From the sequence record PZ583742.1: a DNA stretch of 64,000 nt; one strand, 5' to 3'. A model generated the notes under the pieces. It was not told the DNA's origin, searched no databases, and worked only from the letters and a program-made list of their open reading frames with translations. Position 1 is the stretch's first letter. Each line of letters starts with the position of its first letter. Made by a program: the position numbers and the translations under genes. Positions 3,326 to 9,438 of the stretch are shown here, piece after piece. The DNA comes from a phage.

Positions 3326-3559
3326 ATGACTACTACTGTTGAACATGGTGAATTAGAAAAAGCTGCCCTTGAACTGGCTGCATTGTATAAGAAAGTAAAA
3401 GATATGGCTAACGCTCAAGATTTCGGTATTGAGCTTGACGAATATGATGGCGAGGTTCGTCTCGAAGACTGGTTGTACAGCTCTTGCTACGGTGAAGACG
3501 CTGGTCGCACCTTTGTTGCTCAACCTGACGGTAAAATCTGGTACCCGAGTAGCTGCTAA
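3326..3559 (+). CDS. small protein, tandem paralogue family member 5 (C-terminal WYPSSC)
   Basis: ORF with AAGG RBS; related C-terminal motif. Confidence 0.45.
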   Translation: MTTTVEHGELEKAALELAALYKKVKDMANAQDFGIELDEYDGEVRLEDWLYSSCYGEDAGRTFVAQPDGKIWYPSSC

Positions 3560-6846: not shown

Positions 6847-7341
6847 ATGAATATATTCGAAATGTTACGTATAGATGAAGGTTGTAAGTTGGATTTGTAT
6901 AAAGATACTGAAGGCTATTGGACCATTGGTATCGGGCAACTGATAACTAAGAACCCATCGAAAGATGTTGCTCGCGCCGAGCTCGACAAGCTTATGGGTC
7001 GCGTCTGTAATGGTCGCATAACCCAGCACGAAGCTGAAACATTGTTTAATCGTTCGGTCGAAAAAGCTAAAGCCGGAATCTTGAGGCATCCTGTCTTAAA
7101 ACCTGTTTATGATGTACTGGATGAAGTTCGTCGTTGTGCGCTCATTAATATGGTATTCCAGATGGGTGTTGCCGGGGTAGCTGGTTTTCCTAAGGGTATG
7201 CGACTGCTGAAGGCTAAATCATGGGAAGCTGCTGCTAAGGAACTGGCTGACTCAAGATGGTATAAAGTCCAGACTCCGAATAGGGCAAAACGAGTTATCG
7301 AAACTTTCCGTACTGGAACTTTTGACGCATACAAAAGGTAA
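6847..7341 (+). CDS. e: T4-type lysozyme (endolysin)
   Basis: [51 protein letters not shown] matches T4 lysozyme along its length. Confidence 0.95.
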
Positions 7342-7344
7342 AAT

Positions 7345-7614
7345 ATGAAAACGTATCAAGAATTTTTGGCTGAATCTGTATTAAATGAATCAGATGAAAG
7401 CCGCATGGCATTTTTAGCTAAGAAAGAAGGCTTTGAGTTTACTTCTATTAAAAAAGTTAATGGAACTTCATTTAAAGTTGGTGATTGGACCTTTGGTAAC
7501 AAAGGAAGTGGCCAGTGGCAAATTGTAGATAAATCTGGTAAAGAAGTGGATTATTTGTTTAATCAGAAATTGGGTGATATCGCTAAACTTATGGGTCAAT
7601 ACTCTAAGAAATGA
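7345..7614 (+). CDS. internal protein (IP) with capsid-targeting sequence
   Basis: N-terminus MKTYQEFLAE matches T4 internal-protein capsid-targeting sequence with L-x-E protease site; sits between e and denV where T4 has ipIII/ipII. Confidence 0.65.
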   Translation: MKTYQEFLAESVLNESDESRMAFLAKKEGFEFTSIKKVNGTSFKVGDWTFGNKGSGQWQIVDKSGKEVDYLFNQKLGDIAKLMGQYSKK

Positions 7615-7669: not shown

Positions 7670-8086
7670 ATGACACGTATTAACTTAACCCTGGTATCTG
7701 AACTTGCTGACCAACACCTTATGGCTGAATATCGTGAGCTTCCTCGCGTGTTTGGTGCGGTTCGCAAACATGTACAAAATGGTAAAAAGGTTTCTGACTT
7801 TAAAATCCCATCATCTTTTCTTTTAGGGACTGGTCATGTCACCTTCTTTTATGATAAACTTTTGTTCCTTAAAAACCGCCATCAAGAACTTATTGCGGAA
7901 TGTTTAAAGCGAGGGTTTAACATAAAAGATATTTCTACCCAAGATTTAAATGATATTCCTGATGAATGGAAGAATGATTATCAACCATCAATCTGGTCAA
8001 TTGAAATCAGTCAAGCCAGACTGAATGAGAAAATTTCTCAAAAGCCTACCTGGTACAAATACTATGGGAAAGCAGTGTACGCTTAA
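7670..8086 (+). CDS. denV: endonuclease V (pyrimidine dimer DNA glycosylase)
   Basis: [45 protein letters not shown] matches T4 DenV. Confidence 0.95.
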
Positions 8087-8135
8087 CTAAAAAAGGTTGT
8101 ATACTGATTTTATCAACCAAACAATAGAATATAAA

Positions 8136-8435
8136 ATGTTAACTTATAAAGAATTTATCACAGAAGCTAAAGCTCCTAAAGCATTTCAAATCGGAGTCCA
8201 AGGTAATTTAGACCAACAATATGTTGATGCTATTGTAGCAAGCCTCGGTAAACAGGGCGTGCAAGTGGATTCGGTTGATTTTACTAAAGGCAATACTTTT
8301 AATATTGTTACATCTAAAGGTTCTTTAGCTAAAGTTAAAAAGGCCTTTGGCGTAGCACAAGCATATGAAATTGACCATTCTGAATTAGAAAATAAAGGTC
8401 GCCAGAACACAATTAAAGGTTCTGGTTCTTTCTAA
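8136..8435 (+). CDS. internal-protein-like protein with capsid-targeting-like N-terminus
   Basis: From ATG 8136 the N-terminus is MLTYKEFITEA (CTS-like, I-T-E cleavage motif); the ORF-track start at 8097 is TTG. Confidence 0.5.
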   Translation: MLTYKEFITEAKAPKAFQIGVQGNLDQQYVDAIVASLGKQGVQVDSVDFTKGNTFNIVTSKGSLAKVKKAFGVAQAYEIDHSELENKGRQNTIKGSGSF

Positions 8436-8599
8436 TAAAGGCAAGCCGACCCTCTCCTCATGAACGTCGCGTCCTCTGAGTGATGGACCTTTCCCTACCT
8501 GTAATAAGGTCGAGCCCAAGTGCGGTAAAGGGTTTACATACGGATACATGGACGAATTATGTGCCAAGGAATGGCCCCACCACTTAAAAAGAGACAATT

Positions 8600-9145
8600 A
8601 TGAAAACGTTTTTAACCGGTAGTTACCTATCCCTGATGAATGCTTTTGCAAACCATTCTGATGCTAGAGTAGAACACATTTGTAATAGTGGGTTTTATGT
8701 ACCCGATTCACAAACCTTGTTTAAAGAATGCTGCACCTTAAAACTTGATGGTGGGCGCCAATCTGGTAAAACTAAAGCAGTATCCATTTTTGCTACGGAA
8801 TGGTTAGCTGATGGCGGCTCTATTGTTATTTTGTCTAATAACACGGCATATGCTAATGTTTCGGCTACTGCAATCCGAAAGGAATATTTTAATAACCACA
8901 CAGAAAGTATTAAGCACCGTTTGTACACTGATTCTGTTCGTAGTTTTATTGGTAACACTGCATGCAAATTCCGTGGATTATCACTTTCACGGGTTCTGTA
9001 TATAATTGATGAGCCTGTTAAAACACCTGATATGGATAAGATTTATGATGCCCACATAAAGGTTGTGCATTATTGCTGTCGTGCATCATGTGAAGAAACC
9101 AATCAAACCACACGTCCTCTGTTCTTTGTGATAGGAATGCAATGA
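8600..9145 (+). CDS. hypothetical protein with P-loop-like motif
   Basis: Walker A-like GGRQSGKT and Walker B-like VLYIIDE. Confidence 0.4.
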   Translation: MKTFLTGSYLSLMNAFANHSDARVEHICNSGFYVPDSQTLFKECCTLKLDGGRQSGKTKAVSIFATEWLADGGSIVILSNNTAYANVSATAIRKEYFNNHTESIKHRLYTDSVRSFIGNTACKFRGLSLSRVLYIIDEPVKTPDMDKIYDAHIKVVHYCCRASCEETNQTTRPLFFVIGMQ

Positions 9146-9438
9146 TGACTGATGAAGAACTTTTTGAGTTCTGTTATTTCTCACGTAAGGTCCGAAGAGA
9201 GGACCTTACTACAAATTTCGAATATGCTTATTTCTATCCATTAGAATATGTATTCATGACAGGGCCCTTTAAGGGCTCTCGTTTTAGATGTCATGCACCA
9301 AGCATCCGATTAATGAAACAGGTTCCTTACTTTACTCTGGAATTTATTTCTGGACCGTGTAAGGGTATTATCACTCGCAGTCTCTTAACTTATGACCAAG
9401 AGATTCATATGATTTCTGACTGGAAGAAATATGTCTAA
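9142..9438 (+). CDS. hypothetical protein
   Basis: ORF overlapping upstream stop in the denV-regB interval (T4 vs.3-vs.8 position). Confidence 0.4.
   Translation: MMTDEELFEFCYFSRKVRREDLTTNFEYAYFYPLEYVFMTGPFKGSRFRCHAPSIRLMKQVPYFTLEFISGPCKGIITRSLLTYDQEIHMISDWKKYV

Follow-up and report, generated by a model that had tools for sequence, protein, structure and literature searches.

We found that the 164-nt gap downstream of an ip-like gene in a T4-type phage very probably encodes a conserved, folded, + strand RNA of a phage-specific family that is missing from Rfam 15. The gap lies in a 64,000-nt stretch of sequence record PZ583742.1 (hereafter, the window). An earlier note on this DNA had proposed that the gap could be a small structured RNA, the remnant of a decayed gene, or acquired foreign DNA. 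The first of these readings was supported by deep conservation and by compensatory base changes, despite the lack of any signal from single-sequence folding. The element appears to represent an undescribed RNA family that is present in T4 itself.

Genomic setting and composition of the gap

The window belongs to a T4-type phage of the JS98/IME08 group (Dhakavirus). The genes on its + strand run in the order lysozyme e (6847-7341), a small internal-protein gene (7345-7614), denV (7670-8086), the ip-like gene (8136-8435; PHROG 2667 'internal head protein', E = 1.5e-41), the 164-nt gap, vs.8 (8600-9145; PHROG 1488, E = 1e-70), and vs.7 (9142-9438), with vs.8 named as in the annotation of IME08 and JS98. 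The earlier note had placed a non-coding interval at 8436-8599 downstream of the ip-like gene, and these coordinates are exact, extending from the TAA stop of that gene (8433-8435) to the ATG of vs.8 at 8600. It was noted that vs.8 contains Walker A-like (GGRQSGKT) and Walker B-like (LYIIDEP) motifs, together with weak, sub-threshold Pfam matches to Terminase_6N (the ATPase domain of the T4-type large terminase) and AAA_30. Its product is predicted to be a P-loop NTPase-like protein of unassigned role.

The gap had also been described as richer in GC than its surroundings, which we could confirm. Its GC content is 0.488 compared to 0.350 in the upstream gene, 0.383 in vs.8, and 0.394 in the window, corresponding to the 97.9th percentile among 164-nt windows of the 64-kb window. 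Because 34 other stretches of the window are equally GC-rich, for example within the lysozyme gene, GC content alone is unexceptional; the oddity of the gap is that it is GC-rich and also non-coding. The gap indeed holds no good + strand ORF, the sole one being a 35-aa GTG ORF, and a 70-aa TTG ORF was found on the - strand. Among 13 diverse T4-type relatives, no conserved reading frame was found in six frames, with stops or frameshifts in each. The - strand frame that is open in the window is broken or shifted in most of the 13 T4-type versions, and 1-nt indels occur within conserved blocks of the element.

A promoter-like GTTTAC hexamer was the remaining feature that had been pointed out in the gap. 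The hexamer is present at 8532-8537, where it adjoins the 3' strand of the stem P1 and contains the partner of a candidate pseudoknot (both described below). However, promoter-like matches around the gap are no more common than in shuffles (6 found compared to 5.1 +/- 2.2 expected), and T4 proper reads GTAAAT in place of the hexamer. The consensus scan gave TTTACA-16 nt-AATTAT, a 9/12 match, at 8533-8560. When this was assessed as a sigma-70 or T4 early promoter, the -35 was found not to be kept in T4, and the -10 appeared poor by eye in Klebsiella phages and S16. The stretch at 8533-8560 may be a weak, lineage-specific promoter. The terminator scan called nothing in the stretch that separates the ip-like stop from the vs.8 start, and this stretch gave just one promoter-like match, a weak one.

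Conservation among T4-type phages and the start of vs.8

Conservation in related phages, the absence of which the earlier note had named as refuting its proposals, was found to be extensive. In a blastn search with the 164 nt, 1,037 phage records matched, of which 189 cover at least 80% of the query. The Tevenvirinae genera in which the element was seen directly are Dhakavirus, Tequatrovirus (T4, T2, and AR1), Gelderlandvirus (S16), and Karamvirus, and matches were also encountered in Klebsiella phages such as Marfavirus PWKp16. The homologous sequence of T4 lies between denV and vs.8, at approximately 64,830-64,935 for window 8446-8580, and vs.8 is immediately downstream of the element in the window, T4, AR1, S16, IME08, and Karamvirus. 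The ip genes on either side of the element differ between phages. It was also noted that Escherichia phage 04086 (L010, 1440-1700) and L045 (apparently vb_EcoM-VR5) carry a Tequatrovirus-type 5' half with a short hairpin H1, joined to a 3' half and vs.8 start region of the Dhakavirus type. These mosaic halves indicate that recombination break-points fall within the element.

The T4 RefSeq record (NC_000866; L168 2851-2913, - strand) annotates vs.8 as T4p119, a product of 219 aa beginning at ATG 64912. This ATG falls inside hairpin H1 of the element, in the region equivalent to window 8460-8599. The conserved vs.8 N-terminus MRTFLTG.. (MKTFLTG.. in the window) starts approximately 38 codons after the annotated T4 start, and an N-terminal extension of this kind is ruled out in the window by an in-frame TAA, 9 codons before ATG 8600. 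The RefSeq start of T4 vs.8 is probably mis-annotated, being placed approximately 38 codons too early and inside the RNA element.

Predicted fold of the RNA

Single-sequence folding of the gap was no better than dinucleotide shuffles on both strands (z = -0.03 and +0.08). As folding of this type was uninformative, comparative data were taken over it. Through RNAalifold and pair counts in 13 diverse T4-type sequences, we found that 96.5% of cells pair. Seven pairs were changed on both sides, compared to 3.1 in shuffles, and none of 500 shuffles reached 7; controls in which the partners were slid by 1-3 columns gave at most 2 double-sided changes. G.U pairs occur on the + strand only, which indicates that the folded molecule is the + strand transcript. 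From this comparison, the gap is predicted to fold into a domain of approximately 98 nt (8446-8543), in which a stem P0 joins the ends around a hairpin H1 and a three-way junction of P1, P2, and P3. A second conserved module of approximately 36 nt, with a putative hairpin H4, follows this domain. All of the parts described below lie on the + strand.

The conserved 5' edge of the element, UAAUAAAGG with a short variable leader (8433-8445), is overlapped by the ip-like stops TAATAA (8433-8438). A block, UAAUAAAG, is common to most non-Tequatrovirus T4-type phages, whatever the upstream gene, and in PWKp16 and S16 the upstream gene stops before the 5' edge block. The closing stem P0, with CCG as its 5' strand (8446-8448 with 8541-8543), was identified through RNAalifold and pair counts in the 13 sequences. 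All three of its pairs covary (CG/UA; CG/AU/GC; GC/CG/AU) with 100% of cells paired, and Karamvirus-type sequences have CCUGG/UCAGG or CUCGA/UCGAG at this stem. H1 is a long irregular hairpin, CCUCUCCUCAUGAAC...GUCCUCUGAGUGAUGG (8450-8486), in which 10 pairs have 95-100% of cells paired. Its pair 18-54 covaries (CG/AU), and paired 1-nt deletions on both strands are found in loci L048 and L032. The T4 version of H1 is shortened to CCUCAU-GAUUAU-AUGAGG, and equivalents of P0 and H1 were recognized by eye in rV5-like phages and Klebsiella siphoviruses.

The stem P1, CCCU with AGGG (8493-8496 with 8529-8532), was identified by covariation. Its innermost pair, 8496-8529, is standard in 56 of 56 distinct sequences and occurs as five types (AU, UA, CG, UG, and GC), and the stem reads CUGG/CCAG in Karamvirus, CGCG/CGCG in Ivi, ACCU/AGGU in L042, and CCAU/GUGG in L028. 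P1 encloses the hairpin P2, ACCU-GUAAUA-AGGU (8497-8510), the stem of which is invariant in the 56 distinct sequences. The junction continues with CGA (8511-8513), the mini-hairpin P3, GC-CCAAGU-GC (8514-8523), and GGUAA (8524-8528), and its bases are nearly invariant across the family. In the 2-bp stem of P3, C-G is replaced by U-A in two sequences, one of which, the second copy of L146, reads GU..AC. As the P2 stem shows no covariation, and P2 and most junction bases never vary, we infer the pairing in this part.

The domain is completed by the P1 3' strand AGGG, the tail UUUACAUA, and the P0 3' strand CGG (8529-8543). Within the tail, UUAC (8534-8537) could form a pseudoknot with GUAA of the P2 loop (8501-8504), with 100% of cells paired in alignment A3, one case of covariation (GUGA/UCAC in L017), and a G.U intermediate in Ent31. 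We regard this pseudoknot as a candidate only, because a local GUAA/UUAC hairpin predicted by RNAalifold competes with it. The 3' module (8544-8579) consists of AUACAUGGACGAAUUAUGU and H4, GCCA-AGGAA-UGGC (8563-8566 with 8572-8575), followed by CCCC. The module is conserved across T4-type phages, and H4 is 90% paired with one covarying pair. A weak resemblance was noted between this module and a separate small unit of Klebsiella siphoviruses (7/2000 shuffles).

A side observation concerned the P2 loop (window 8501-8506), in which positions 2-4 read UAA in most sequences, UGA in Karamvirus-type sequences, and UAG in L071, L117, L123, and L132. These triplets comprise all three stop codons, and the only other triplet seen was CAA, in one exception. 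A reading as an anticodon loop or suppressor tRNA was rejected, as the loop has 6 nt, the flanking bases are unfit, and a CUA-anticodon tRNA lies near only one of the four UAG-loop variants (L071, approximately 1 kb away). When the P2 loop was left free in the pattern scan, the true members had only G/A-U/C-R-R-N-A loops, and only chance matches were added.

A core shared with unrelated phages

A 32-nt core of the element, ACCUGUAAUAAGGUCGAGC-N6-GCGGUAA, recurs at approximately 90-95% identity in phages unrelated to T4. Its consensus across lineages is ACCUGUAAUAAGGUC-(G)AGC-N5-7-GCGGUAA, and approximately 40 nt of the gap matches. In the rV5-like Vequintavirus phages FV3 and JEP1, the core was found in a 345-nt intergenic gap approximately 570 nt upstream of a tRNA cluster, and in the 45-kb phage Ivi the endolysin gene is followed by an intergenic gap that holds it. 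Further carriers came from pattern scans of IMG/VR, namely Klebsiella siphoviruses of approximately 46 kb, contigs of approximately 70 kb, and several uncultured phages. The relaxed pattern AAGGTC..AGC..GCGGTAA alone was rejected, as it mostly returned coding P-loop sequences, and a metagenome scan with a UUUAAU-tail sub-family pattern yielded one contig that was already in the set.

A covariance model, R1, was built from 44 core sequences. The family is defined by a variable P1 enclosing ACCU-N6-AGGU, C(G)A, GC-N4-6-GC, and GGUAA, with H1 upstream and P0 closing the whole. The window element has this architecture, its P0, H1, and P1 pairing as in relatives, and in the R1 cmsearch it matched at 8483-8542 (+) with 78.5 bits (E = 3e-21), joint top of 77 matches. 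No second copy was found by R1 in the 64-kb window, in which an exact 19-mer of the core occurs once compared to 0 expected, and the 62-74 kb region of T4 gave one match, at denV-vs.8. R1 also recovered extra tandem copies, missed by the patterns, in L146 and L031. Two tandem copies, approximately 86-115 nt apart, were observed in Karamvirus phages and one uncultured phage (Ent31, L008, 847-906 and 961-1018; L146, 823-882 and 909-967; also L037 and L031), and the second copy of Ent31 is without the long H1 hairpin.

We assessed the genomic context of the motif outside the T4-type phages. The motif was located at most 700 nt from tRNA genes in 8 of 13 independent non-T4 lineages, as counted by eye. 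In L046 it follows tRNA-Ser at a distance of 45 nt, and in L042 it is flanked by tRNA-Glu and tRNA-Met. A tRNA precedes it by 130-300 nt in L028, L132, and L120, and tRNAs follow it at 150-570 nt in L164, Klebsiella siphoviruses, and rV5-like phages. The scan called an intrinsic terminator 14 nt past the motif in L120 and 46 nt past it in L050, and a further one was seen by eye approximately 30 nt past it in L046; L050 also has a promoter-like site approximately 45 nt upstream. No shared partner protein was found, as the neighbor genes of different lineages belong to different PHROG families. The tRNA proximity, the terminators, and the unshared neighbors together indicate that in these phages the motif is a small RNA gene, presumably expressed together with tRNAs or beside them, and not the leader of a particular gene.

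Additional RNA-like features were encountered around the motif in several of these loci. In L022, L034, L044, L016, L039, and L071 (Klebsiella siphoviruses of approximately 46 kb and contigs of approximately 70 kb), inverted repeats were found within approximately 400 nt of the motif. The alternating repeats A (CACAACAGGTAAGAGCA) and A' (TGCTCTT.CCGTTGTG) separate the motif and small RNA-like units, can form stems of approximately 20 bp adjoining tRNA genes, and have the appearance of a cassette array on processing stems. A megablast search with a 1-kb segment of L022 (motif, tRNA-Met, and A/A' repeats) matched 334 phage records. The unit GGTTTACAT..GGAC..GCCACGGAGT of these arrays is the one that weakly resembles the 3' module of the window. 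Further GC-rich hairpins were noted within the 345-nt gap of FV3 (L003, 2400-2660) and the equivalent rV5-like gaps. A unit, UAGAGGG(A/C)UUGA(U/A)AGUGC, flanks the motif as two copies in L049 and L117 and was seen only upstream in FV3. The whole rV5-like intergenic gap may be one larger structured RNA. Within the phage tRNA array of L046, 46 nt at 3351-3396 (+) match positions 1184-1229 of the archaeal large-subunit rRNA model at 26.9 bits (E = 2.8e-4), which is below gathering. This stretch could be a small rRNA-fragment-like RNA, or the match could be due to chance.

Possible functions of the RNA

The function that we tentatively favor is that of a stable RNA, cut from the early transcript, with a conserved host component as its binding partner, perhaps one involved in tRNA or translation biology. 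The RNA would be transcribed as part of an early polycistronic message on the same strand as e, ip, denV, and vs.8, since no terminator-like site was called and only a weak promoter-like match is present in the gap. Host RNases could then excise a stable RNA of approximately 100-135 nt, as with the tRNAs of T4 and its stable RNAs C and D, which are excised from a polycistronic precursor. This RNA would act in trans, its invariant core serving as a binding surface for a conserved enterobacterial component that would most plausibly belong to tRNA or translation biology. Action in trans on a host factor is suggested because unrelated phages carry the core in tRNA arrays, ending at its own terminator, and because the core stays approximately 90-95% identical without a shared neighboring protein gene. 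A stable host-binding RNA is favored because P0 joins the ends, because tRNAs accompany the motif, and because the junction and loop are near-invariant. A more speculative and rather doubtful proposal is that the element is a new functional RNA class exchanged horizontally by virulent enterobacterial phages, either as a decoy or inhibitor of a host factor acting on tRNAs or the translation machinery, or as a new small ribozyme for the processing of phage tRNAs and early transcripts. In the former case, its target could be, for example, a tRNA-targeting defense nuclease.

A counterpoint to the stable RNA is that nearly all T4-type phages have the element directly upstream of vs.8, a position that fits a cis-acting leader too. 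The main rival is accordingly placed here: a vs.8 5' leader that sets translation or elongation as a riboswitch-like aptamer, a translational operator, or an RNA thermometer, which we judge to be unlikely. Besides the position, which is shared by the window, T4, AR1, S16, IME08, and Karamvirus, aptamers typically have a three-way junction in which the junction bases do not vary, and the 3' module separates this junction from the ribosome-binding site of vs.8. However, the gene downstream of the element in PWKp16 begins like an ip gene (MKTYKEFITEAK), unrelated ORFs lie downstream in rV5-like phages and Ivi, and the motif is followed by a terminator in L046, L120, and L050, where what appears to be a separate start region precedes the next gene. 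No alternative base pairing with the ribosome-binding site of vs.8 was found to be conserved, the inverted repeat I1 being without a counterpart, by eye, in T4 and L018, and there was no Rfam riboswitch match. A role in RNA processing or stability seems quite unlikely. Such an element, whether a new type of self-cleaving ribozyme or a folded structure that host RNases cut or are stopped by, would separate or protect cistrons and free tRNAs. The setting between cistrons in T4-type phages and between or beside tRNAs elsewhere would suit it, as would the compact junction, invariant unpaired bases, and possible pseudoknot, and Klebsiella siphoviruses carry the motif on a long stem of alternating inverted repeats that resembles processing stems. 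Nevertheless, no Rfam ribozyme model matched at E up to 10, a cleavage site is not inferable, and simple stabilizer hairpins do not need approximately 30 invariant bases.

The element could also be imagined as a signal in the DNA, either a weak early vs.8 promoter with GTTTAC as its -35 or a homology block for the shuffling of ip cassettes. The 9/12 match at 8533-8560, the differing ip genes around the element, and the recombination within it in 04086 and L045 are in line with this proposal, which we nonetheless hold to be very unlikely. Selection on an RNA is indicated by the compensatory changes and by G.U pairs confined to one strand. The hexamer is replaced by GTAAAT in T4, Klebsiella phages and S16 have by eye a poor -10 match or none, and promoter-like matches are as many as expected from shuffles. 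Upstream, the flank consists of folded, GC-rich sequence rather than an A/T-rich UP element. It is extremely improbable that the gap once coded for a protein and has decayed, that it holds a small protein gene missed by annotation, or that it stems from the host. The 70-aa ORF open on the - strand, and the T4 RefSeq start of vs.8 at an ATG inside the element, would fit a gene; yet every frame has stops or frameshifts among the relatives, indels of 1 nt interrupt conserved blocks, and the vs.8 extension is closed in the window by the in-frame TAA upstream of ATG 8600. With regard to the host, no blastn match to the gap was found in 5,426 complete E. coli genomes. A scan with a 21-base pattern, using one genome for each of 185,579 species, gave only 4 matches, all in apparent coding sequence without the flanking stem, and these were rejected as evidence of host origin and read as chance. 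Because neither search gave a true match, the element is considered to be confined to phages. The decayed-gene and host-DNA readings are essentially excluded, and what stands of the proposed foreign acquisition is that the core does look horizontally shared among unrelated phages.

Implications

T4 and its relatives are, to our knowledge, among the best-studied viruses, and beyond tRNAs they have essentially no recognized non-coding RNAs other than C and D. An element with a covariation-supported fold, found in more than 1,000 sequenced phages and with a core that is repeatedly set in tRNA arrays, is a candidate for a new phage RNA function. The vs.8 annotation in T4 would need correction, as the element is hidden beneath an over-long vs.8. 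If the RNA targets a host factor, it would provide an RNA member for the largely protein-based list of phage counter-measures, and it might illuminate the clustering of the orphan RNAs ROOL and GOLLD with phage tRNAs. Should the proposal of a horizontally exchanged functional class be true, T4 would carry an undescribed functional RNA under the annotated start of vs.8.

Comparison with known RNA families

The element was compared with the 4,227 models of Rfam 15, which include riboswitch, ribozyme, CsrB, ToxI, ROOL, GOLLD, and Drum models. At E up to 10, nothing was found at the gap, the only match being STnc150 (13 bits) inside vs.8, and the motif drew no Rfam match in FV3 or in eight other loci. 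ARAGORN identified 0 tRNA or tmRNA genes in the whole window, and no Rfam tRNA match was found at 8000-9000; the same tools do find the tRNAs adjoining the motif in other loci. We found no description of the element in the literature searched, and a catalogue of 10,006 phage RNA candidates (PMC10690425) may list it.

Three-way-junction aptamers such as the purine class resemble the element in size, in the P1-closed junction with conserved junction bases, and in possible loop-tail tertiary contacts. Riboswitch aptamers differ from it, however, in that no conserved downstream gene or expression platform was seen for the element across the family and it occurs elsewhere as terminated standalone units, and no riboswitch match was found in Rfam. 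The small ribozymes of phage DNA (twister, twister-sister, hammerhead, pistol, and hatchet) share with it a compact junction or pseudoknot fold and invariant unpaired bases. The stretch CCCAAG..GCGGUAA..GGG has a superficial resemblance to the loop and pseudoknot bases of twister, and this resemblance was set aside, as the Rfam ribozyme models give no score even at E up to 10.

ToxI-like type III antitoxins and the pseudo-ToxI decoys of phages are small pseudoknotted RNAs of phages or plasmids that work by protein binding, and tandem copies of our element occur in two lineages. In contrast to these antitoxins, the window has a single copy with no tandem repeat at 8200-8800, its neighbors are ip and vs.8, and no toxin gene is adjacent. 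The apparent similarity to ToxI (ACCU, AGGU, and AAGUGC) is short, was not backed by the Rfam search, and was rejected. Host stable RNAs share 9-12-mers with the element, including GUGCGGUAA in RNase P RNA, GUAACAAGGU at 16S 1497, and CGCGGUAAU in the 16S 530 loop. Mimicry of these RNAs was rejected because column permutations do as well (46/200). A CsrA sponge was also considered, but the three GGA motifs all lie outside the part conserved across lineages.

The T4 genes rnaC and rnaD (species 1 and 2 RNAs) offer a closer likeness, as their products are phage-encoded, non-coding, from tRNA-sized to 140 nt, and of unassigned function, and they share the leftward early region with the tRNA genes. 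They differ in that no sequence resemblance was seen by eye and no R1 match was found at rnaC or rnaD, and the T4 element is approximately 6 kb away, between denV and vs.8. ROOL and GOLLD are orphan structured RNAs typically found in phages and prophages adjoining tRNA genes (PMC5737381; PMC12286853). Like them, the element would be an orphan structured phage RNA, mostly near tRNA genes outside the T4-type phages, but these RNAs are 5-8 times larger and come from other bacterial lineages, and their own Rfam models do not match it. While belonging to none of them, the element has its closest analogues by kind in T4 RNAs C and D, ROOL, and GOLLD.
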